DNA from: a bacterium
GTDB taxonomy: Bacteria; Patescibacteriota; CPR2; UBA1875; CAIMLA01
NCBI GenBank assembly: GCA_037129835.1
Contig: JBAXUE010000001.1
Span: 174,858 to 238,857 of the forward strand
DNA: 64,000 bases
Reading direction: 5' to 3'
The translations under genes were made by a program, and so were the position numbers. This document shows positions 3,738-55,199 of the stretch, one piece after another. The notes beneath the pieces are model-generated. The model was not told the DNA's origin. It saw nothing but the letters and a program-made list of their open reading frames with translations, and made no database searches. The number at the start of each line of letters is the position of its first letter. The first letter of the stretch is position 1.

Positions 3738-4999
3738 AAATTGCAGTAGCTATGTCGGGTGGGGTCGATTCTTCTGTCGCTGCGGCATTGATGGTCGATA
3801 AATATGGTACACAAAATGTTTTCGGCGTGACTATGAAACTATTTTGTTATGGTGAAAGCGGCGGTAGCGATAAAAGTTGTTGTTCGTTAGACGCGATAGA
3901 CGATGCAGCTATGGTTTGCAAACAGCTTGGGATAAGTCACTATGTTGTAAATCTAGAAAAAGATTTTGAGGCAGAAATAATAGATAATTTTATTTCAGAA
4001 TATAGTCAAGGAAGGACCCCAAATCCCTGTGTGAGATGTAATAGTCTCATTAAATTCAAGCATTTATTACGAAAGGCACAGGAGCTGGGTGCTGATATTC
4101 TAGTTACGGGTCATTATGCTCGGATTCTCCCTTCTTTGTCATCCCTGGTAGTTAACCCAGGGATCTCTAGCGGCCCCTCTGACTTGTCTAGCGAAGCCTT
4201 GGTCATCGACTCTGAGGTGAGCCTCATCGCTCAGACTCGAAGGGCGAAGATGGAAGAAGATCCTCATTTTCGTAAGGATGACAACGTTTTGGGACTTTTC
4301 TGCGGTCTTGATTCCGCCAAGGATCAATCATATTTCCTTTACAATCTTGATCAATATCAGCTGGGCCACATTTGGTTCCCACTAGGGGAGCTCACAAAGC
4401 CGGAAACACGTAAATTGGCTGAGAAATATGCTCTTAAAACGGCTCAAAAGACAGAATCGCAGGACATTTGTTTTGTAACAACTACCACACAGGATTTTTT
4501 ATCCAATAAGATAAAGATAAAAGCGGGAAACATAGTAGATAAAGCCGGGAATGTACTCGGTAAACACGACGGGATACCTTTTTATACCATAGGACAGCGA
4601 AAAGGTCTCGGAGGAGGGTTTACAGAGCCAATGTATGTTACAGGGTTCGACCTTGTAAGAAATGATCTCGTCGTGGGAAGAGAAGAAGAACTATATGATG
4701 ATGAGATGATGGTGAGTGATATACATTGGACTTATGGAGCACCCGATTTACCCACTGAGATGGAAGTAAAGATTCGGTATAATTCTAAAGCGAGTTCCGC
4801 TTCACTAAATACTTCGAGCGAAGTTGAGAAGTCACGGTCTGATAGTTCTCGATCTGGCAACTGCCGGACTTCGAACAATAAAGTATTAATTAGATTCCAA
4901 AAACCTCAAAAGGCCATTACCCCTGGGCAAACTGCTGTTTTTTATATAAAAGAAGAGGTCGTTGGCGGAGGCATTATTGAGTCTACTAGAAAATATTGA
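3734..4999 (+). CDS. mnmA: tRNA-specific 2-thiouridylase MnmA carrying an in-frame ~50-aa insertion
   Basis: N-terminal PP-loop motif MKIAVAMSGGVDSSVAAALM, plus a CxxC motif, GHYAR, DQSYFLY and a C-terminal TPGQTAVFY. The protein is about 60 aa longer than typical MnmA because of two extra segments. Confidence 0.9.
   Translation: MKIAVAMSGGVDSSVAAALMVDKYGTQNVFGVTMKLFCYGESGGSDKSCCSLDAIDDAAMVCKQLGISHYVVNLEKDFEAEIIDNFISEYSQGRTPNPCVRCNSLIKFKHLLRKAQELGADILVTGHYARILPSLSSLVVNPGISSGPSDLSSEALVIDSEVSLIAQTRRAKMEEDPHFRKDDNVLGLFCGLDSAKDQSYFLYNLDQYQLGHIWFPLGELTKPETRKLAEKYALKTAQKTESQDICFVTTTTQDFLSNKIKIKAGNIVDKAGNVLGKHDGIPFYTIGQRKGLGGGFTEPMYVTGFDLVRNDLVVGREEELYDDEMMVSDIHWTYGAPDLPTEMEVKIRYNSKASSASLNTSSEVEKSRSDSSRSGNCRTSNNKVLIRFQKPQKAITPGQTAVFYIKEEVVGGGIIESTRKY
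4134..4285 (+). mobile_element. About 150-bp palindromic insertion element with 9-bp terminal inverted repeats (TTGTCATCC ... GGATGACAA), inserted in-frame in mnmA
   Basis: Terminal inverted repeats at 4135-4144 and 4277-4285. Inner hairpin ATCCCTGG-N7-CCCAGGGAT at 4141-4164, plus a second imperfect hairpin TCGACTCTGAG-N13-CTCAGACTCGA. It encodes LSSLVVNPGISSGPS...EEDPHFRKDDN, which is absent from MnmA homologues at the GHYAR/LDSxKDQSYFLY junction. A second copy lies at 16242-16318. Confidence 0.6.
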
Positions 5000-16816: not shown

Positions 16817-16892
16817 CGGGCCCTTAGCTCATCTGGTAGAGCGCGTCCATGGCATGGATGAGGTGGCAGGTTCGAGTCCTGTAGGGTCCACC
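16817..16892 (+). tRNA. tRNA-Ala (anticodon GGC), CCA encoded
   Basis: Cloverleaf folds manually. Acceptor GGGCCCT/AGGGTCC contains the G3:U70 Ala identity pair. Anticodon loop is ATGGCAT. Confidence 0.85.
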
Positions 16893-17058
16893 AGATATTC
16901 AGCAGGCCCTATTTTATTAAGATGGTTTGCACCGAGGAGGTAGCAGGTTCCCAGCCCGACAGAGTCATTCTGGCGGGAAGTCGTGCCCGCCCGCCCGTAG
17001 TATGACGAAGGAGGGTTGGGTCCACCATATTGACCCCATATTACTTGGTTGGAACAAA
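16893..17058 (+). other. GC-rich structured non-coding segment downstream of tRNA-Ala. Candidate ncRNA or tRNA-end remnant plus one copy of the intergenic repeat family
   Basis: Hairpin GGCGGG-N8-CCCGCC. GGGTCCACCA at 17018-17027 duplicates the tRNA-Ala 3' end. Positions 17010-17056 resemble the repeats at 19837 and 25425. The 62-aa ORF at 16927..17115 is unlikely to be coding. Confidence 0.3.
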
Positions 17059-17085
17059 GAGGTAGAAATACCTCTTTTTGTGTTA
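17059..17085 (+). terminator. Rho-independent terminator AGAGGTA-gaaa-TACCTCT + TTTTTGTG
   Basis: Perfect 7-bp stem followed by a T-run. Confidence 0.6.
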
Positions 17086-17095
17086 ATATTATCTT

Positions 17096-17740
17096 ATGAG
17101 GGCGTTATTTTCTGAACCAACCGTTAAATTCTGCGAAGAAGCAACCAGGGGTATAATCAAAAGACCTTATTATGCTTTGTCCAATTTTGCATTCTTCATT
17201 TCCGCAATCGCGATTTTCGTCAAGGGGAAGGGTTCAAAACTTTCAAAAATATTTGGCACCACCGCTTTATTAATCGGGTTCTTTTCTTTGGTGTACGATT
17301 CAACCTATATTTATCTTGCCCAGTTGTTTGATATCAGCGGGATGCTTTTATTTGTTAACGTTTTGTTATACCTAAATCTTAAGAATGTATTCAAAGCAAA
17401 AACCCTACTACTTACCCAGTTGCTTTTATTCGTTTTAAATATGATTTTAATTATCACTTTTCAAGGTCACTCGGGTAATATCATATTTGGATTATACATA
17501 ACTGCAGTAGTTGTTTCCGAGGTTTATTTAATAAATAGTAAGATACACACAAATTTATGGAAATGGTTGGTGCCCTTCGGAATTTTTATTATCAGTTTCC
17601 TGATATGGATTTTGGATGCAAGGAAAATATTTTGTTCACCTGTCGGGTTACTCAATGGTAGGGCAATATTTCATTATCTTAACGCGATTGTAATTTACCA
17701 GTTATACAAATTTTACGATTCACAAAAAGAGTTAACCTAA
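17096..17740 (+). CDS. Hypothetical polytopic membrane protein (about 6-7 TM)
   Basis: Hydrophobic periodicity only. No recognisable motif. Confidence 0.45.
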   Translation: MRALFSEPTVKFCEEATRGIIKRPYYALSNFAFFISAIAIFVKGKGSKLSKIFGTTALLIGFFSLVYDSTYIYLAQLFDISGMLLFVNVLLYLNLKNVFKAKTLLLTQLLLFVLNMILIITFQGHSGNIIFGLYITAVVVSEVYLINSKIHTNLWKWLVPFGIFIISFLIWILDARKIFCSPVGLLNGRAIFHYLNAIVIYQLYKFYDSQKELT

Positions 17741-17765
17741 ACAGATCGTTCCCAGTTCTTGCCAT

Positions 17766-17880
17766 TCCAACAATTCAAGAACCAACTGGTTCCAATGAGA
17801 TAACAGGCAGTCCACCATAAATTTAATGGCTAATTGGAGCCATTAAATTTATATACCCAATTTTCAGTTGGAACCTTTTT
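17766..17880 (+). repeat. Intergenic structured repeat, copy a (nested inverted repeats, GTCCACCATAAATTTAATGGCT core)
   Basis: Shares CAGTCCACCATAAATTTAATGGCTA-N-GAGCCATTA...TTTATATACC-AA-TTT-CAGTTGGAACC with 25425-25530. Outer inverted repeat GTTCCAA/TTGGAAC. Inner palindrome TTTAATGGCT/AGCCATTAAA. Confidence 0.6.
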
Positions 17881-19796: not shown

Positions 19797-19836
19797 TAAC
19801 TATATCTTTGAGTTCTTCCAAGCCATCAGTTCTTTA

Positions 19837-19930
19837 ACCAATAAGTTCCAACTATTTTCGAAGTAGTCCACCATTTTGACCACATCGAAAATACTTGGAA
19901 CCAAGGGGAGACACGAAAGTGTCTCTTTTG
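19837..19930 (+). repeat. Intergenic structured repeat, copy b, ending in the terminator hairpin GGAGACAC-gaaa-GTGTCTC + TTTTG
   Basis: ACCAATAAGTTCCAACTATTTTCGAAGTAGTCCACCAT shared with copies c and d. Internal inverted repeat GTTCCAACTATTTTCGA / TCGAAAATACTTGGAAC. Terminator at 19907-19930. Confidence 0.6.
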
Positions 19931-19982
19931 TATTCTAAAAGGTGTTTTTATGGGTTATTATATACTCAGGTATAGGGGGAAC

Positions 19983-22823
19983 ATGAAAATAGCTAAATTT
20001 AAACTTGCTTACCTTGGCCTTTCGGTGCTTTTGCTTATCTCAGCAACTTTTGTTGGTTTCAAATTTCTTTATAATAATTCTGCAGGTCAGCTAGCCAAGG
20101 GCTCATTTTATATTAGCCAATTTATTGACTCGAACTGGAAGGAAATCTACGACGAGTCCTTTGGGGTCGAATATCAAACTAAAACTTTTACTATTGCACC
20201 ACGTGACGGCAAGGTTCAGATACAGATAAATCAAAAGAATATTCCTTATTCGGATGTTGAATTTGTCCATTTGAATGCTTGCGGGGTGAATATTACTCCT
20301 GAATACGCAAAGTATGCGGTTACCGGTGAGAGCGTCCTAGCGGATATATCGGCCGATGATAATAACGTAATCGTCGCCCACGAGAAGCCAGTTGAAATAC
20401 TTTGGAACATGCCAATTGGTTGTACAGGCACAGCCACCATGACGATGAAGGCGAACGAGTACAGCTCAGCTGAAGCAGGAGCAATTCGCTTTCCATACTC
20501 TGGTGCTCCTAATCAGACTTATCAATTTATAAACAACGGAACCATCACCATAGACGGTAACATCAAGGAAGTTGACGGCATCGCCACTCCAAACTATTCA
20601 CCTACTTGGCTATCTGGCACTGGCCATCCTGGAGGTAGTACATATATCTATATGCAAGATGATGCAAAATACGTCTATCTTTCATATGACATCACCGGTG
20701 ATAATACCAATGAGCACGGACCTGACTGGCTCAAGATCATGGCGCTAAATACTAAAGACGGTAAAGAAAAAGAATATAAGATAAATGATGATCCAGGCCA
20801 ATACGGTCAATGTGGTTTTGGTCTGACTGGTAAAGTTTCATACAAACACCAGACATGTGAGGCAAAGATACCAAAGGCAGATCTGGTTGGTAGTCATCTC
20901 TCATTCTACTCGCTGTATTATGGAACTTTTTCAGGACCTCAGTTTAATAATTATCCTAGCGTTATAACAAGCCCATCAAATACACTGCCGGTTGTGAAGG
21001 GAATGGTATCTGACAATAGCGAAACTCCGGGAAACATCGGGGCTGTAAAATTCCGTGTCAGAGATAGAAATTCTTACTCGACCAGAGAAGAAGACAGTGG
21101 GGCATATGATGGTGTTTGCACTGCAGATGATGGAGTATTCTCTGGGTCTGAAGAGAATTTCACCTGTACTGCCACCGAAGCACTCTCTTATGGCATTAAC
21201 TATGCCTTTGATCTGGAGCTAACTCTGGAGGGCAGTAGTGTCCCGAATGCATACGGAGAGGCCGATTTTACACTCTACGATAATGATTATTCAATCGTTC
21301 ATGATTATAGCGACACCCTGGGTAGTTATCCAATTGGTCAATTTGTAAAGAATGGCAACAAGCTATACGGTGCTACAACTAGTGGTGGTGAACATGGCTA
21401 TGGCAATATATATTCGATGAACATAGACGGTACAAACATGACCAGTATTCACTCCTTTGATGGACAAGGTGATGTAGCTGGCGGTTACACAGTCAGTAAT
21501 TCCTTGGTTTTATCGGGTTCATATCTGTATGGTATGGTCCAAGGTGGAGGCGATGTCGATCAGGGCGGTGTATTCAGACTGAATGTAAACGGAAGCGACT
21601 ATTCAATGATTCACTCATTCAGCGGGTCCACCGACGGATACACCCCCTATGGTTCACTGACTGTATTAGGGAGTCGTCTGTATGGTATGAATGTCAATGG
21701 GGGAATAAATAGTCGGGGAACTATTTTTGGACTGGATATGGACGGGACCAACTTCTCGGTTATTCATAGTTTTGCAGGTCCTGAAGGTGGTAATCCTTTT
21801 AGCACCTTGATTGAGTCGGGTGGCGTTCTGTATGGTATGACAAACTCCGGTGGACTTCAGGATAATTTTGGTGTAATCTTTTCTATCTTGCCATCCGGTG
21901 CCGACTATCATATTTTACATTCATTTTCTGCATCTGATGGCTTTCAGCCGAGTGGGTCATTAACGCTCATTGGGGAAACACTGTTTGGGGCGACTCAGAG
22001 TAGCGGAGCAGAAAGTGGCAATGGGATTATCTTTAAAATCCAGAAGTCTGGGGCCGACTATTCTATCATTCATAATTTTGGCGATGATTTAAACGATGGG
22101 GACCTACCAACATATTCGTCGCTTCAGCTTTGGGGTGACAAACTATATGGAGTCACTGACATCGGGGGAGATAATAACATGGGGACAATATTCTCTATAA
22201 ATACGGATGGTACTGGCTACTCGCTGTTACATGAATTCGCTGGAGGCCCCTATGATGGTCAAACGGGTAGATTCTCGGTGCTCATTTCTAATGGCGTGCT
22301 TTACGGTACGACTTTTTATGGTGGCACATCAAGTCAGGGTGCCATGTTCAAAATGACACTTCCTGGGGCTGTCAGTAACCCAGGCAGTAGCGGTCCAGTA
22401 TTCACGAATCTACCCAGCGCTACCACGGTTATCAATATTACAGATGGTCAGACCATCACTACAAATCCCTATACTTTAAAAGTGAAGCCAACAGATGCCG
22501 ATGGTATTCAAAAGGTTGAGTTTTATATCGATAATATCCTTATCTGTACTGATACTACCGCCGATGTTGATGGCGTATATTCATGTGATTGGGATACTAG
22601 TAAATATCACTCAGATGTTAAAGTCTTGGCTTATGATACGAATGGCAATGTATCCACTGCACTAACTCGTTCGGCTACTGTGAGGCTGGCCAGTACGACT
22701 ACAGGAACATTGCCAGAGACAGGTGGTAAGAATAATCTAGGAAACATCTTATGGCTCATCGGTTTACTCGGCGTAGCGTTCGTAGGTGCTCGTTCAACAC
22801 TAAAGGATAAGGGAGGGGAATAA
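19983..22823 (+). CDS. Large sortase-anchored surface protein: signal peptide, N-terminal domain, about 8 tandem ~40-aa beta-propeller-like repeats, Ig-like domain, LPETG sorting signal
   Basis: Repeats of the form G-x-LYG-x-T-x-GG-x4-G-x-[IV]F-x-[IL]-x3-G-x3-S-[IV]-[IL]HSF (GloVer-like). C-terminal LPETGG followed by a hydrophobic segment and a basic tail (ARSTLKDKGGE). ATG at 19983 preceded by an AGGGGGAAC RBS. Confidence 0.75.
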   Translation: MKIAKFKLAYLGLSVLLLISATFVGFKFLYNNSAGQLAKGSFYISQFIDSNWKEIYDESFGVEYQTKTFTIAPRDGKVQIQINQKNIPYSDVEFVHLNACGVNITPEYAKYAVTGESVLADISADDNNVIVAHEKPVEILWNMPIGCTGTATMTMKANEYSSAEAGAIRFPYSGAPNQTYQFINNGTITIDGNIKEVDGIATPNYSPTWLSGTGHPGGSTYIYMQDDAKYVYLSYDITGDNTNEHGPDWLKIMALNTKDGKEKEYKINDDPGQYGQCGFGLTGKVSYKHQTCEAKIPKADLVGSHLSFYSLYYGTFSGPQFNNYPSVITSPSNTLPVVKGMVSDNSETPGNIGAVKFRVRDRNSYSTREEDSGAYDGVCTADDGVFSGSEENFTCTATEALSYGINYAFDLELTLEGSSVPNAYGEADFTLYDNDYSIVHDYSDTLGSYPIGQFVKNGNKLYGATTSGGEHGYGNIYSMNIDGTNMTSIHSFDGQGDVAGGYTVSNSLVLSGSYLYGMVQGGGDVDQGGVFRLNVNGSDYSMIHSFSGSTDGYTPYGSLTVLGSRLYGMNVNGGINSRGTIFGLDMDGTNFSVIHSFAGPEGGNPFSTLIESGGVLYGMTNSGGLQDNFGVIFSILPSGADYHILHSFSASDGFQPSGSLTLIGETLFGATQSSGAESGNGIIFKIQKSGADYSIIHNFGDDLNDGDLPTYSSLQLWGDKLYGVTDIGGDNNMGTIFSINTDGTGYSLLHEFAGGPYDGQTGRFSVLISNGVLYGTTFYGGTSSQGAMFKMTLPGAVSNPGSSGPVFTNLPSATTVINITDGQTITTNPYTLKVKPTDADGIQKVEFYIDNILICTDTTADVDGVYSCDWDTSKYHSDVKVLAYDTNGNVSTALTRSATVRLASTTTGTLPETGGKNNLGNILWLIGLLGVAFVGARSTLKDKGGE

Positions 22824-22828
22824 ATACT

Positions 22829-24829
22829 ATGAATTTTAATTTAAAAAAGACATTCAGCAATATTTTAGTTTTTGTTTTTATGTTTAATTTTTTAATGCCA
22901 GTAGCCCAGGCTGCAGCGCCAGTACAAAGTGTTTTTTTATACGAGCCTGGGGTTAGTCCAACCAATATTCAAATAGACTTTTATCCAAACGAATGGAGCG
23001 ATGTAATAGATTATTGGACGGTTGAATACAAAAAAAGTACCGATACTACCTGGACATCTATGCTATCCGCAAATAACGGGGGCAGCAATTGGGCGCGCAT
23101 TACCGGCTTGTTGCCGGGAACTTCATATGATATTAGGGTTTATGCGACAAACAGTGATGGACAGGGTCCATATAGTGATATTACTACAGTTTCTACCCCG
23201 TCATATGGGCCTGCTGCAGTAGATTTTTTTGGCAGTGGAAGAAACGACTATGGTGAGGATTGGACCGAGTCTAATAGCGACAATACAAATACGTCTTTTA
23301 GTAATCCTAGCGGTGTCGCCATAGACAAGAATCATCATAGGTTATTTGTTGCTGATGGTGGTGGCGATGGTGATCGTAATCATAGAATTATGGTCTTTAA
23401 TCTGGATAGTAATAATGAACCCCTGGACCACATAGCAGATGCGGCAATTTACTCTGTGGATATAGATGGTGATGAGTCGCTTTTGAGAGCGCCAAGAAAT
23501 GTCTTGTACGATAATGACAGTGACACCTTATTTATAGCTGATAGTGATAACGGTAGGATTGTGGTTGTAGATGGCTCCGAGGATCTTATTGTCGAGGGTA
23601 CAGAAGACGACCCTTGGGCTATCCCAGTGGCACAGAACATCTTGGGAGCTGGCGATTTTGATTACCCTCTTGGTATGACCCTAGACAGTGTAAATGGCAG
23701 ATTGTTTGTTGCAGAGAAAGATAAAACAAAAGGTAGTGTTTACGGCAGTGTAAACGTATTTGACGTAAGACCTGCAGGAAGTACTGCAAAAACGATGTGT
23801 GGTGTAACTACAACGGGCATCGAAGATACGACTCCTTCATGCAGCTTGTGGGCAAGTGATGCACTTAGACCTAGAGATGTTGCCTTTGATAGCGTAGGTC
23901 AAGTTCTTTATGCTGCGTATGCAGACCAAAATAGGGTTTTGTCCTTTGATGCTAGAGCTGAGGAAAGTGAAAATAAAACAATGTGTGGAGTGACTACGAC
24001 TGGACTACCCACTAGCGATACAACTGCCATGACCCCATCTTGTGTTTTGGGTCAAACAAATATGGATGATACCGATGGCGATACCACTCAAAGTGGACTA
24101 GATGTTCCCAGAGGTTTGTGGTTTGATCAAGATAACGACCGCCTGTTTGTAGCTGATTTGGGTAATAACCGCGTTCTACAGTTTAATGGTCTGTCATCTA
24201 TGACTAATGGCATGGATGCGACTGCTGTTTTTGGACAAGGGGCCTTTACACAAGACAATAGTCAAACAACTCAATATGAGCTCGATAGTCCAAATGCAGT
24301 TACTATAGACCCTATCACCAAGCGTTTATATGTTAGCGATAACCAAAACAATCGTATAATGGTCTTTGCCTTAGAGGATCCACCAGAGCCACCAGCAACC
24401 CCACCAACTTTCGTCGATTTACCTGGTACAAGCTCTGCTATTAACGTCACCGAAGGCCAAACGATTACAACCAACCCATACACCATAAAGGTAAAACCAA
24501 CAGATACTGACGGTATCAAGAAAGTCGAGTTCTATATCGATAATATTCTTATTTGTACCGATACAACAGCAGATAGTGACGGTGTCTACTCCTGTGATTG
24601 GGATACCTCGAAATACCACTCTGATATCAAAGTGCTGGCCTATGACACAAATGACAATGTATCAACAGCCCTAACTCGCTCTGCTACTGTGAGACTAGCT
24701 AGTACTACTACAGGAAAGCTTCCAGAAACTGGCGGTAATAATAATCTAGGAAACATCTTATGGCTCATCGGTTTACTCGGCGTAGCTTACGCAAGCAGAC
24801 GCCTGATGCTCAAAAAAATAAATATTTAA
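22829..24829 (+). CDS. Sortase-anchored surface protein: signal peptide, fibronectin-III-like domain, about 6 NHL-type beta-propeller repeats, Ig-like domain, LPETG sorting signal
   Basis: Signal peptide MNFNLKKTFSNILVFVFMFNFLMPVAQA. NHL-like repeats (SNPSGVAIDKNHHRLFVADGG...NHRIMVF, NNRVLQF, NNRIMVF). C-terminal 130 aa are about 90% identical to the C-terminus of the upstream gene, including LPETGG. Confidence 0.75.
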   Translation: MNFNLKKTFSNILVFVFMFNFLMPVAQAAAPVQSVFLYEPGVSPTNIQIDFYPNEWSDVIDYWTVEYKKSTDTTWTSMLSANNGGSNWARITGLLPGTSYDIRVYATNSDGQGPYSDITTVSTPSYGPAAVDFFGSGRNDYGEDWTESNSDNTNTSFSNPSGVAIDKNHHRLFVADGGGDGDRNHRIMVFNLDSNNEPLDHIADAAIYSVDIDGDESLLRAPRNVLYDNDSDTLFIADSDNGRIVVVDGSEDLIVEGTEDDPWAIPVAQNILGAGDFDYPLGMTLDSVNGRLFVAEKDKTKGSVYGSVNVFDVRPAGSTAKTMCGVTTTGIEDTTPSCSLWASDALRPRDVAFDSVGQVLYAAYADQNRVLSFDARAEESENKTMCGVTTTGLPTSDTTAMTPSCVLGQTNMDDTDGDTTQSGLDVPRGLWFDQDNDRLFVADLGNNRVLQFNGLSSMTNGMDATAVFGQGAFTQDNSQTTQYELDSPNAVTIDPITKRLYVSDNQNNRIMVFALEDPPEPPATPPTFVDLPGTSSAINVTEGQTITTNPYTIKVKPTDTDGIKKVEFYIDNILICTDTTADSDGVYSCDWDTSKYHSDIKVLAYDTNDNVSTALTRSATVRLASTTTGKLPETGGNNNLGNILWLIGLLGVAYASRRLMLKKINI

Positions 24830-25380
24830 GACTTATCCTTGCTGGGGTTGGGGTTGCTTCGCTTCTTGCTTTTGGTATTTTCTTTCCATGGAAACCATTT
24901 GCCGATAACTTGTTCAACAAGAATGGACTAAACATCACCATGTCTAAAGAAGAAGAGGGATCCTTTCAAGATTTTGGTATAGAGATACCGAAGCTTGATG
25001 TAAAAGCGCCGGTTATGGCCAACGTAAATGGTGATAATAAGTCAGAATACAACAAGTCACTGACGAAGGGACTCGCTCACTACAAGGGGACCTCTCTACC
25101 TGGCGAAAAGAGCAATATCTTTGTTTTTGGTCACTCAAGTAGCGACACAGACGGTGGACGTTACGCTAAAATATTTAGAAAACTAGACGATCTAAAAAGT
25201 GGCGATAAGATAACTGTGTATTATAAGAGCAAGAAACATGAGTACACAGTAACCGATAAGAAAGTTGTCGAGGCCGACGACCTTTCACCTCTCAACCTGA
25301 CTGATGGTGAACAGCTAACTTTGATGACCTGCTGGCCGATAGGAACCGTAGAAAAGAGATTGATAGTTATCGCGAAATAG
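24760..25380 (+). CDS. Sortase (transpeptidase), N-terminal TM anchor
   Basis: Catalytic His in IFVFGHSS, TLxTC motif LTLMTCWP, and a downstream Arg. The ATG at 24760 has an AGGAAA RBS and overlaps the last 70 nt of the upstream LPETG gene in another frame. Confidence 0.8.
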   Translation: MAHRFTRRSLRKQTPDAQKNKYLRLILAGVGVASLLAFGIFFPWKPFADNLFNKNGLNITMSKEEEGSFQDFGIEIPKLDVKAPVMANVNGDNKSEYNKSLTKGLAHYKGTSLPGEKSNIFVFGHSSSDTDGGRYAKIFRKLDDLKSGDKITVYYKSKKHEYTVTDKKVVEADDLSPLNLTDGEQLTLMTCWPIGTVEKRLIVIAK

Positions 25381-25424
25381 CATCTATTCTAGACTGATTC
25401 AGCACTTTCCAGGCGAGTAATTCC

Positions 25425-25530
25425 TTTACCAACAAGTTCCAACTATTTTCGACGCAGTCCACCATAAATTTAATGGCTATTTAGAGCCATTATTTTTATA
25501 TACCAAATTTACAGTTGGAACCTTTGAGCG
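25425..25530 (+). repeat. Intergenic structured repeat, copy c
   Basis: Near-identical to copy a over CAGTCCACCATAAATTTAATGGCTA and TATATACCAAATTTACAGTTGGAACCTTT. Confidence 0.6.
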
Positions 25531-26891
25531 TGAGATGGTATTATTTCGGTATGGAGCAACTAGGTCAAAATCAATCAATCGAAACTGATGACGTTAAACC
25601 GCCAGAAGTCTTTGAGGCTAAAGCAGATGCTGATCCTGCCTTGGCGGCATATTCTTCTCAACCTGAGAATAATCCACTCTCGCAAGCTTTTATGGAAAAA
25701 TATGGGGTTGAATATTCCGACCCTCAAGCCTTAGCTGAAAATCCAGACAAACCTTCACCGGAAATTTCTATGGTGATCCCGGTTCACAATGAGGGTGAAA
25801 GTATTGTTGGGTTGCTCGAGTCCCTAGCGTCACAGGTAAGCGATAAAAGCGCCGAAATTGTATTAGTAATAAATAATGACACAGTCGGGACTAGAGACAT
25901 TATTGATAAGGCAATCGCGGAAGGTAAAATTGACGGTTCTAAATTGCGCCTAGTCGATTGTAGCTACGAAACAAAAGAAGATGGTGATGCTAAGATGGGC
26001 GGGGTTGGGTTAGCCAGGAAAATTGGTATGGACTATGCCGTAAGCTCTGGCTCTGAAACGATAGTCTCCTTAGACGCAGACTGGAAGGTCGAAGACGGCT
26101 TTATTGACCAGGTTGACCAAACAATGTCGCCAGATATCGATGGATTCACCTTTCAAACTGAAGGAATTGCTAACGATGATAGTTCACGTGAATATATGAG
26201 GGTGATGGGTCAGGTCCAGCGCTACAGAGAAGCACTAGGTATTTCTGCAATAAAAAAAGAGGTTGATTTAGAATCGCCGCTAGACAAGAATACAGGTGCA
26301 GTCCATGTGGTCAGAGCTTCTAGCTATGCCAAGGCTGGTGGCATGGTCCCTGTCGTCACAGGTGAGGACGGTAGGTTTGGTGCAAGGGTTTCTGAGAGTG
26401 GCGCTCGACTAAAGAAATCAGAAATTACAGTTGGCGTTGAAATTAGGGAGAGTGACACGCCGGGTGGTCAAGGGGAAAGCCTAAAGAAATTCAACGAAGG
26501 CCTTGTTACAAACCCAGATAAGCCGGGCGAATATATCACGATTGATGAGGCTCAAGAAAAGATGGATAACAGCAAAGAATTTCAGGCAGAACAGAAAAGA
26601 CAAGAAAAAATTGATGAGATCTCAAAAGAACTTATCCAAGAACTTACTAGTTTTTATAACAATAACAAAGAAAAATTACAGACATTAGAAATTGAAGACA
26701 TTGATTCAATTAAAGAAGAGGCAAATACCAGTCCGCTAATAAGCAAGTATCTACTATCTTCAGAGAACGATTTTAGCCAACTGATTGGGATACTTAAGGA
26801 CAGCACTACAGTAGATCAATTCATTTCGGGATTAAGAGATAAGCTGGGCGACGCTGTTAAGGGAAGGGTAGAGGAGTCCGTAGCTTCGTAA
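25515..26891 (+). CDS. Family-2 glycosyltransferase with long C-terminal charged/coiled-coil tail
   Basis: ISMVIPVHNEGESI and a DxD (LDAD) arrangement. C-terminal 130 aa are Lys/Glu-rich. Confidence 0.6.
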   Translation: MEPLSVRWYYFGMEQLGQNQSIETDDVKPPEVFEAKADADPALAAYSSQPENNPLSQAFMEKYGVEYSDPQALAENPDKPSPEISMVIPVHNEGESIVGLLESLASQVSDKSAEIVLVINNDTVGTRDIIDKAIAEGKIDGSKLRLVDCSYETKEDGDAKMGGVGLARKIGMDYAVSSGSETIVSLDADWKVEDGFIDQVDQTMSPDIDGFTFQTEGIANDDSSREYMRVMGQVQRYREALGISAIKKEVDLESPLDKNTGAVHVVRASSYAKAGGMVPVVTGEDGRFGARVSESGARLKKSEITVGVEIRESDTPGGQGESLKKFNEGLVTNPDKPGEYITIDEAQEKMDNSKEFQAEQKRQEKIDEISKELIQELTSFYNNNKEKLQTLEIEDIDSIKEEANTSPLISKYLLSSENDFSQLIGILKDSTTVDQFISGLRDKLGDAVKGRVEESVAS

Positions 26892-26916
26892 ATCTTCTTC
26901 CATTCTTTTAACTCTC

Positions 26917-27015
26917 CCACCAATAAGTTCCAACTATTTTCGACGCAGTCCACCATATATTTAATTGCCGATTCGGGTCATTATTTTTTTGTACTTATTT
27001 TTCGCTGGAATGAAA
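26917..27015 (+). repeat. Intergenic structured repeat, copy d (3' half degenerate)
   Basis: ACCAATAAGTTCCAACTATTTTCGACGCAGTCCACCATATATTTAAT is shared with copies b and c. The right arm has diverged. Confidence 0.5.
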
Positions 27016-54556: not shown

Positions 54557-54643
54557 GCGGACGTGGCGGAATTGGTATACGCGCTAGCATGAGGGGCTAG
54601 TGATCGCAAGGTCTTGGAGGTTCAAGTCCTCTCGTCCGCACCA
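54557..54643 (+). tRNA. tRNA-Leu (anticodon GAG), long variable arm, CCA encoded
   Basis: Manual cloverleaf: acceptor GCGGACG/CGTCCGC, anticodon loop ATGAGGG, T arm GAGGTTCAAGTCCTC. Confidence 0.8.
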
Positions 54644-54644
54644 A

Positions 54645-54721
54645 GGGCGCCTAGCTCAGTTGGTTAGAGCATCTCGTTTACACCGAGAGGGTCAGAGGTT
54701 CGAATCCTCTGGCGCCCACCA
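54645..54721 (+). tRNA. tRNA-Val (anticodon TAC)
   Basis: Acceptor GGGCGCC/GGCGCCC, D arm GCTCAGTTGGTTAGAGC, anticodon loop TTTACAC, T loop TTCGAAT. Confidence 0.85.
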
Positions 54722-54829
54722 TTCGACTCGCTAACTCGCTCATGGCTTACAGCCATAGAGTTTGAGGGGAGAATGTCCTGAGTGAGGTTGTAAAACCGAA
54801 TCGAATGGACAAAAGTAAATATTATTTGT

Positions 54830-54905
<76 letters not shown>

Positions 54906-54951
54906 CTTAAATAAGAGAATAATTTTCATCGTTGGTTTGAAAGTTTTACGA

Positions 54952-55026
54952 GCGAGAGTAGCTTAGCGGTAGAGCGCAACCTTGCCAAGGTTGAGGTCGC
55001 GGGTTCGATCCCCGTCTCTCGCTCCA
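54952..55026 (+). tRNA. tRNA-Gly (anticodon GCC)
   Basis: Acceptor GCGAGAG/CTCTCGC, anticodon loop TTGCCAA, T loop TTCGATC, discriminator U. Confidence 0.85.
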
Positions 55027-55040
55027 TTAATATTATTTAG

Positions 55041-55114
55041 GGCCTGATGGCGGAGTGGTTACGCAGCGGTCTGCAAAACCGCGTACCCCGGTTCAATTCC
55101 GGGTCAGGCCTCCA
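55041..55114 (+). tRNA. tRNA-Cys (anticodon GCA)
   Basis: Acceptor GGCCTGA/TCAGGCC, anticodon stem-loop GCGGT-CTGCAAA-ACCGC, T arm CCCGGTTCAATTCCGGG. Confidence 0.8.
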
Positions 55115-55199
55115 GCCCGGGTGGCGGAATTGGTATACGCGACGGACTTAAAATCCGTTGGCTTCGGTCTTGCGGGTTCAAGTCCCGCCTCGGGCACCA
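55115..55199 (+). tRNA. tRNA-Leu (anticodon TAA), long variable arm
   Basis: Acceptor GCCCGGG/CTCGGGC, anticodon loop CTTAAAA, T arm CGGGTTCAAGTCCCG. Abuts tRNA-Cys. Confidence 0.8.

Follow-up and report, generated by a model that had tools for sequence, protein, structure and literature searches.

A putative sortase operon with two modular substrates, a conserved substrate/sortase overlap, and a 47-nt perfect repeat in a probable CPR-type bacterium

The window analysed here is a 64,000-nt stretch of bacterial DNA (contig JBAXUE010000001.1, positions 174,858 to 238,857), in which the list of open reading frames (ORFs) contains three co-directional genes, referred to as gene 1, gene 2, and the sortase. 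Window coordinates on the + strand are used for these genes throughout, and the features of the locus are collected in Table 1. Because a terminator-like hairpin with a T-run is found directly after the sortase, where it closes the unit, and no terminator-like site lies at either gene junction, the three genes look like one operon. A foreign origin judged from base composition was rejected, as genes 1 and 2 have 42–43.5% G+C, like their neighbours. The window represents one genome, and its relatives comprise six single-gene lineages, given here as L-numbered contigs. We read the locus as an operon of two sortase substrates followed by their sortase, in an uncultured host that is probably of the candidate phyla radiation (CPR)/Patescibacteria type; the substrate tails would be old paralogues, gene 1 would carry the relic of a sortase start, and a 47-nt identity between the tails would be a recent gene-conversion patch. 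The probability of this explanation as a whole is put at roughly 0.6.

Gene 1 matches the GloVer repeat model TIGR03803 with 200.9 bits (cut-off 44) in seven stretches, and Big_7 (PF17957) scores 34.9 bits in gene 1 and 37.8 bits in gene 2 (gathering score 24.1). The true start of gene 1 is likely the ATG at 19983, which is preceded by the Shine-Dalgarno sequence AGGGGGAA and begins the 946-aa form of the NCBI record; homology with contig L017 sets in ~13 nt upstream of this codon (~19970). The first ATG of the ORF, at 19950, falls in the conserved upstream region, which also contains a hairpin and T-run at ~19906-19932, and is probably not the start. The ATG of gene 2 follows the stop of gene 1 by 5 nt and is preceded by GGGAGGGG, with a Shine-Dalgarno sequence at 22811-22818. 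N-terminal secretion signals, read by inspection only, are MNFNLKKTFSNILVFVFMFNFLMPVAQA in gene 2 and, from ATG 19983, MKIAKFKLAYLGLSVLLLISATFVG in gene 1. The sorting signals, LPETGG-NNNLGN-ILWLIGLLGVAYA-SRRLMLKKINI in gene 2 and LPETGG-KNNLGN-ILWLIGLLGVAFVGA-RSTLKDKGGE in gene 1, both show the pattern of LPXTG, hydrophobic stretch, and basic end, the end being weaker in gene 1 (net charge ~+1). The sortase matches PF04203 (98 bits, cut-off 26.6) and TIGR01076 (82.8 bits, cut-off 39.35), and the catalytic His, TLxTC Cys, and Arg motifs can be read as FVFGHSS, LTLMTCWP, and EKRLIVIAK and are kept in sortases P0001-P0013. By inspection, its N-terminus consists of a basic segment, MAHRFTRRSLRKQTPDAQKNKYLR, and a hydrophobic segment, LILAGVGVASLLAFGIFF, predicted to be a membrane anchor. 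The protein is labelled 'class D sortase' by NCBI, and its scores lie below the class-specific NCBIfam cut-offs for class C (85.3 of 160), class D (77.6 of 165), SrtD (80.2 of 140), and class E (52 of 160).

Table 1. Features of the locus in window coordinates, and lengths of the substrate/sortase overlaps. pS and pN, proportions of synonymous and nonsynonymous differences; omega, dN/dS, the ratio of nonsynonymous to synonymous substitution.
Feature	Position	Strand	Details
Promoter/leader region, conserved	19866-19975	+	92.6% identity to upstream of L019 ELWxxDGT gene; 85% to L009
Gene 1	19983-22823 (ORF list: 19950)	+	946 aa; GloVer passenger, Big_7, LPETGG sorting signal
Gene 1 passenger block	19970-22472	+	~91% nt identity with L017; pS 0.216, pN 0.056, omega 0.23 (sliding identity, Nei-Gojobori)
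Tail module, copy 1	22374-22823	+	Linker, Big_7 Ig domain, LPETGG, hydrophobic stretch, weakly basic end; ungapped against copy 2
47-nt perfect repeat, copy 1	22731-22777	+	Gene 1 codons NNLGNILWLIGLLGV; AGGA, ATG and 9 codons in sortase frame
Relic sortase 5' end (putative)	22751-22810	+	19-codon frame MAHRFTRRSVRRCSFNTKG, then stop; first 9 codons identical to sortase
Gene 2	22829-24829	+	666 aa; signal peptide, FN3, NHL beta-propeller, Big_7, LPETGG (Pfam fn3, NHL, Big_7 matches)
Tail module, copy 2	24383-24829	+	Ungapped alignment to copy 1
47-nt perfect repeat, copy 2	24740-24786	+	Functional ribosome-binding site, ATG, first 9 sortase codons
Sortase	24760-25380	+	206 aa; first 70 nt (24760-24829) out of frame within gene 2 sorting signal
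Terminator-like hairpin and T-run	25471-25492	+	Directly after sortase
~70-nt element, four copies	17754-17818, 19808-19874, 25397-25465, 26889-26956	+ (all)	
Overlap, window gene 2/sortase			70 nt
Overlap, L009/L007/L008			70 nt; sortase P0006
Overlap, L017/L018			70 nt; sortase P0005
Overlap, L019-L022			70 nt; sortase P0004
Overlap, L005			76 nt; sortase P0003
Overlap, L014			67 nt; sortase P0009

The sortase start lies within the sorting signal of gene 2, and an out-of-frame overlap of 67-76 nt, with both frames open and conserved, was found across six lineages. In every case the sortase ATG is built from the substrate codons xTA-TGG (Leu/Val-Trp) of the hydrophobic stretch, and the sortase frame in the overlap, Arg- and Lys-rich, begins M-A/V-H/N-... 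When orthologous junctions are compared, the tract around the start codon is 87-93% identical (pS 0-0.21) and the post-tract stretch 74-90% identical (pS 0.24-0.35), with a pS of 0.58-0.81 in the adjoining Ig part. Judged from these counts, the suppression of synonymous change in the overlap is the signature expected of dual coding. In this clade, the final 67-76 nt of a substrate gene, which specify the hydrophobic helix and basic end of its sorting signal, would double as the ribosome-binding site, ATG, and basic cytoplasmic N-terminus of the sortase, whose translation is presumably coupled to that of the substrate. In a more distant relative, L016, a small LPETG protein ends 1 nt into the sortase. 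No ATG, GTG, or TTG other than that at 24760 precedes the membrane anchor of the window sortase, and the same start is given in the NCBI record and was called in one ENA contig. In other gene calls on record for ENA and JGI contigs, this sortase and its relatives have often been shortened to 146-159 aa, by which the overlap is avoided and the membrane anchor lost, and as NCBI keeps the 206-aa form, annotation is inconsistent across records. No paper on overlapping sortase and substrate genes, nor any on sortases of the CPR, emerged from a full-text literature search.

Two further junctions among the relatives deserve mention. In the Glug-type substrate of L002 (2864-2866; also L003 and L004, in three samples), a GGA to TGA change places a stop right after LPQTGGNNNQ, so that the protein lacks the hydrophobic stretch and basic end of its sorting signal, although the codons for them persist unbroken and in frame beyond the stop. 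With this change the sortase also loses the GGA of its ribosome-binding site and gains an ATG further upstream (MKYF-MAHRF…). We read this TGA as a real stop because TGA is a normal stop codon in the group; an alternative genetic code was rejected, given that TGA ends 11 of the 52 long window ORFs and does not recur in frame in the L002 gene. In L006 (1-270), the sortase body is as in L007/L009, and the junction is degraded, with stops in both frames (after …GEALIID and after MAHRLTR); six changes fall within 24 nt and are followed by 100% identity from GATACTCAAAAAAATAAATATC onward. L006 is either a second decayed relic tail or a chimeric assembly.

The C-terminal modules of the two substrates form an ungapped alignment, offset by +2009, that runs from ~22374/24383 to the stops (BLAST E = 5e-82), so that the shared 3' module noted in a preliminary description of this DNA is real. 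That description had put the identity at ~90%, which is too high: over the span given there (22390-22823), the register of +2009 yields 311/434 identical positions (71.7%), the best ungapped segment of 338 nt (22440-22777) reaches 79.6%, and the second pair of coordinates, 24420-24829, is ~20 nt out of register. The 111-codon core (GQTITT...LLGVA) is 79.6% identical in DNA and 93% (103/111) in protein, and the whole module has 114/145 identical residues. Third codon positions hold 80 of the 123 differences between the tails. The Ig part has a pS of 0.805 and a pN of 0.053, and among codons for the same residue 56 of 94 differ, where 57.2 would be expected from independent draws on the codon usage of the window. 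The dN/dS comparison proposed in the preliminary description gave an omega of ~0.03-0.07 for the tail and 0.23 for the gene 1 passenger (gene 1 versus L017). With synonymous sites saturated, the two tails are, as far as substitution counts can tell, old paralogues that are alike at the protein level, held by strong purifying selection and not a recent copy of one another. It had been suggested that the whole 430-bp module was recently duplicated from the gene 2/sortase junction, with which the shared 47 nt and the 93% protein identity of the core would agree. This is highly improbable: the synonymous-site counts refute it, with 72-80% DNA identity, a pS of 0.81, and codon choice as in random draws, and the gene 1 tail resembles that of L019 at least as closely as that of gene 2. 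A protein search with the tail module alone returned only five fragments, and a scan for the conserved core TATGGCYCATCGGYTTACTCGGYG in public genome contigs and metagenome contigs found one locus in each.

The preliminary description had also raised misassembly, to be settled by long reads; the concern is answered here without them. The gene 1-gene 2-sortase sequence is 100% identical in three separate ENA records, of which ERZ27300174 (372 kb) and ERZ27300165 (5.5 kb) span both junctions and ERZ27299960 (1.8 kb; L001) covers the gene 2 tail/sortase junction only. Repeats can cause breaks or joins in metagenomes assembled from short reads, and the odd junction of L006 could be such a chimera, but the two copies differ at >20% of sites, and a read or k-mer (k141 in the contig names) is longer than the 47 nt over which they are identical. 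The probability that the arrangement arose from collapsed or chimeric repeats is therefore practically negligible. At positions 1-29 of L001 (ERZ27299960:k141_74750), a Nextera-type adapter remnant (…AGATGTGTATAAGAGACAG) is fused to the gene 2 tail.

Within the diverged tails lies a direct repeat of 47 nt that is perfect in DNA (47/47) and protein (15/15). It contains the sequence AGGAAACATCTTATGGCTCATCGGTTTACTCGG that the preliminary description had quoted, correctly, from both genes. As also claimed there, the same ATG opens the 206-aa sortase at 24760 and a 19-codon dead end at 22751. A search of the window allowing ≤3 mismatches found the two copies only, with 0 expected. The next-longest identical run between the tails is 14 nt; a run of 47 nt was reached in 1 of 200,000 shuffles of codon columns, and drawing codons at random for the conserved residues gives P ~1e-8 for 15 consecutive identical codons. 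The core is 76.5% identical in DNA (87/95 in protein) to the left of the tract, and DNA identity between the genes falls to 37% to its right. A 25-nt core inside the tract is identical even between distant junctions; over the whole tract, functional junctions differ among themselves by 3-8 nt (gene 2 versus L019, 43/47; gene 2 versus L017, 41/47; L019 versus L017, 39/47; L002 versus L009, 42/45 over the 45 whole-codon positions). The gene 1 tract is likewise 4-6 nt away from L019 (43/47) and L017 (41/47), but matches gene 2 at 47/47.

The frame opened in gene 1 is supported as the relic of a substrate/sortase junction, on the grounds that the orthologue of gene 1 in another metagenome keeps an intact overlapping sortase and that the post-tract sequence of gene 1 has decayed. 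This orthologue, P0127 on L017/L018 (89% nt identity over 2.8 kb), is directly followed by its own sortase, MVHRFTRRSIRKRPTDTQKNKY..., with a 70-nt overlap with the tail. The relic codons after the tract still resemble the N-termini of the L002 and L017 sortases (IRKRPANTQK) before the stop, and the post-tract DNA of gene 1 is 37-60% identical to any functional junction, where functional junctions are 77-83% identical among themselves. Of the two origins offered in the preliminary description, one can be retained, namely that a sortase of its own formerly followed gene 1, as seen in L017/L018 and paralleled by the overlaps in L009, L019, L005, and L014; the other, recent copying of the tail from the gene 2/sortase junction, falls with the duplication. 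The loss would most simply have occurred by a deletion from about codon 20 of the gene 1 sortase to just upstream of the gene 2 ribosome-binding site, and the remaining sortase would now serve both substrates.

The best reading of the 47-nt identity is a recent short gene-conversion patch between the two tails, to which its long identical run and diverged flanks (76.5% left, 37% right) correspond. Conversion is preferred over simple retention because retention predicts at least 3-8 differences, and more since constraint on the gene 1 copy was lost, whereas 47/47 with sharp edges was observed. It probably started from the 25-nt core, where dual coding leaves little room for change. Older patches in the Ig core are suggestive only, with runs tests giving P = 0.008-0.02 (uncorrected) and longest-run tests not significant.

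Recombination might instead have used the repeats as crossover sites, adding, and possibly removing, the whole 2009-nt gene 2 unit from tract to tract, either by homologous RecA-type insertion of a circular intermediate or by unequal exchange at the dual-coded core, the identity being the footprint of the event. The direct repeats do bracket exactly one gene unit, and as they share a codon register, excision from tract to tract would leave gene 1 in frame, with a working tail that overlaps the sortase, exactly as in the single-substrate loci L017 and L019. The L019 locus has one substrate behind a promoter region 92.6% identical to that of the window, and passenger exchange at the locus is demonstrated (see below). 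To leave two identical copies, however, such a crossover would need donor and recipient tracts that already matched, and 3-8 nt separate the functional tracts of one locus from those of another. Affinity does not switch cleanly at the tract, the Ig part of L019 being 82% identical to gene 1 and 79% to gene 2; and neither a deletion nor a circular form was seen, all three assemblies being tandem. We regard this explanation as conceivable though unlikely. The related proposal that L019 is itself a recombinant, gene 1-like to the left of the tract and gene 2-like to the right, was rejected on the same 82% and 79% in its Ig part; its post-tract likeness to gene 2 is attributed to decay of the gene 1 relic.

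That selection keeps the tract identical, with the internal start of gene 1 still in use, is distinctly unlikely. Candidate uses would be the 19-codon peptide itself, ribosome loading that ends at 22810, at the Shine-Dalgarno sequence of gene 2, or a shared RNA or DNA binding site. The tract extends from about -20 to +27 around the ATG, roughly the footprint of an initiating ribosome, and the short frame stops 1 nt before the GGGAGGGG of gene 2. Functional junctions nevertheless tolerate 3-8 changes in the 47 nt, so that identity is not required; the relic frame diverges and ends right after the tract; and coupling needs no extra frame when the stop of gene 1 is already 5 nt from the ATG of gene 2. 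An RNA element in the tract was rejected, as both contexts fold no better than shuffles (z = +0.4 to +0.8), and Rfam returned only tRNAs over the window and nothing at the tract.

Several points weigh against the explanation that we prefer, a conversion patch in an operon with one lost and one retained sortase. The tandem arrangement was seen in no second genome, the comparison consisting of the window and its six single-gene relatives, and selection and crossover remain rivals to conversion as the source of the identity. Donor and recipient of the conversion cannot be told apart from the data, and the deletion proposed for the first sortase is the simplest model only. The assignment of ATG 24760 as the real sortase start draws on its conservation and on the lack of another start codon. 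Lastly, the signal peptide of gene 2 has weak similarity to those of L009 and L002 (E = 0.022, a single comparison), which would fit an alternative history in which gene 1 entered behind the promoter, ahead of a gene already in place. A homology between the gene 2 signal peptide and the membrane anchor of the sortase was also considered and was dropped as low-complexity similarity.

Cassette shuffling, which the preliminary description had proposed for this locus, is real, but its clear breakpoints lie at ~22472 and ~19970 and not at the sortase start; within the tail module, only the 47-nt patch is recent. Identity between gene 1 and L017 falls abruptly at both ends of the passenger block: the right breakpoint coincides with the start of the Big_7 domain (ITTNPY), and from 22473 on the comparison is saturated (pS 0.746), while the left one lies at the ribosome-binding site of gene 1, with sequence upstream of ~19965 matching the promoter regions of L019 (92.6%) and L009 (85%). 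Four different passengers are found on one tail/sortase module, namely GloVer (gene 1, L017), FN3 and NHL (gene 2), Glug (L002, L009), and ELWxxDGT (L019; TIGR04534, 510 bits). GloVer homologues in turn have varied anchors: Big_7 with LPXTG, SLH, PG_binding_1, or a type IX secretion system (T9SS) tail. Passengers would thus have been exchanged on a constant frame of promoter and tail, the GloVer body of gene 1 probably being a later arrival or exchange (dS ~0.25 against L017). Three units with their own sortases (Glug in L002/L003, GloVer in L017/L018, and ELWxxDGT in L019/L021) co-occur in ERZ27300155 and JGI 3300021473, and may belong to one genome; if so, their paralogous tracts differ (39/47 for L019 versus L017) and have not been homogenised.

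The surroundings of the operon contain an intergenic element of ~70 nt (…TTCCAGGCGAGTAATTCCTTTACCAAyAAGTTCCAACTATTTTCGACGCAGTCCACCAT; nhmmer E = 2e-13 to 5e-21) that ends in GTCCACCA, like a tRNA 3' end. In the window, its four copies are confined to 9 kb beside a tRNA-Ala gene, and each follows a gene block (ceramidase; cupredoxin to GSDH; gene 1-gene 2-sortase; GT2). The element also flanks homologous units, at ~4340-4410 and 7160-7232 of L009 and at 3436-3507 of L019. At 19845-19901 the element forms an imperfect palindrome of 24 bp, whose outer arms read TTCCAAC…TTGGAA (DNA fold -13.2 kcal/mol, z = -5.6). The alternation of repeats and gene blocks looks like a cassette array. It does not show the features of an integron-type array: no integrase family occurs among the genes called on either side, and only one of the four copies is a full palindrome.

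The order of blocks varies between relatives. The L019 unit lies directly between tRNA-Ala(tgc) and a sequence 87.7% identical to the one found ahead of the window's ceramidase gene, and in the window ~2.8 kb, from ceramidase to GSDH, lie in between (L019 770-972 and 3436-3577 against window 16818-17099 and 19866-19998). tRNA genes also occur upstream of the units in L017 (tRNA-Arg, just upstream) and L009 (tRNA-Glu, further off). After tRNA-Ala(ggc) of the window (16818-16893), a degenerate tRNA-like sequence at 16895-17027, not called by ARAGORN, resembles the 3' half of the L019 tRNA-Ala(tgc), with ~60 extra bases before …GGGTCCACCA. A further six tRNA genes are clustered at 54557-55196 (Rfam RF00005). 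In a more far-reaching account, the dual-coded segment, held almost constant by its two reading frames, would be a portable docking site for adding, dropping, or patching whole substrate genes ahead of a sortase by homologous exchange, and the entire unit would be one of several cassettes bounded by ~70-nt repeats near a tRNA gene, in an order that differs between related genomes; as a joint claim, we consider it unlikely.

Most elements of this locus have known counterparts. Dedicated sortases are encoded beside their LPXTG substrates in class B, C, and D systems of Firmicutes and Actinobacteria. As in those systems, LPETG substrates here directly precede a sortase that carries the His, TLxTC Cys, and Arg motifs and an N-terminal membrane anchor, and two substrates are paired with one enzyme. 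The locus differs in the sortase start 67-76 nt inside the sorting signal and in another frame, conserved in the clade, for which the literature search found no description; the sortase also reaches no class-specific NCBIfam cut-off, and the host is uncultured and CPR-like. In the 'choice-of-anchor' families TIGR03803 (GloVer) and TIGR04534 (ELWxxDGT), one passenger is likewise found with different C-terminal anchors, whereas here the converse is seen as well, one tail and sortase with four unrelated passengers, and the breakpoints are visible in the DNA; literature matches on 'choice-of-anchor' were unrelated.

Short-tract gene conversion (concerted evolution) is known between paralogous surface-protein genes, and the perfect patch flanked on both sides by diverged paralogous sequence is of this kind; it differs in being very short (47-49 nt) and dual-coded, with one copy a non-functional relic of the second frame. 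Long out-of-frame overlaps with translational coupling are likewise known, and share with the present one two conserved frames on one strand and suppressed synonymous change; here, however, the N-terminus of an enzyme is paired with a signal peptide-like segment that its substrate uses, and coupling is only presumed. Substrate-sortase clusters, choice-of-anchor proteins, conversion between paralogues, and overlapping genes are thus all known, and it is their combination that is unusual: a conserved 67-76 nt overlap, a decayed copy of it in a second substrate, and a 47-nt conversion patch. On the whole, the locus represents instructive but fairly ordinary modular evolution.

For annotation, the locus is of practical use, since gene callers truncate overlapping sortases and the start of gene 1 is easily misplaced. 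For the biology of these little-known uncultured bacteria, it illustrates at the DNA level how surface proteins are built, with interchangeable passengers on a constant set of promoter, Ig stalk, LPXTG signal, and sortase, and a conserved out-of-frame overlap that ties the start of the enzyme to the sorting signal of its substrate. Should the overlap indeed act as a recombination anchor, dual coding would have created a reusable site of exchange.

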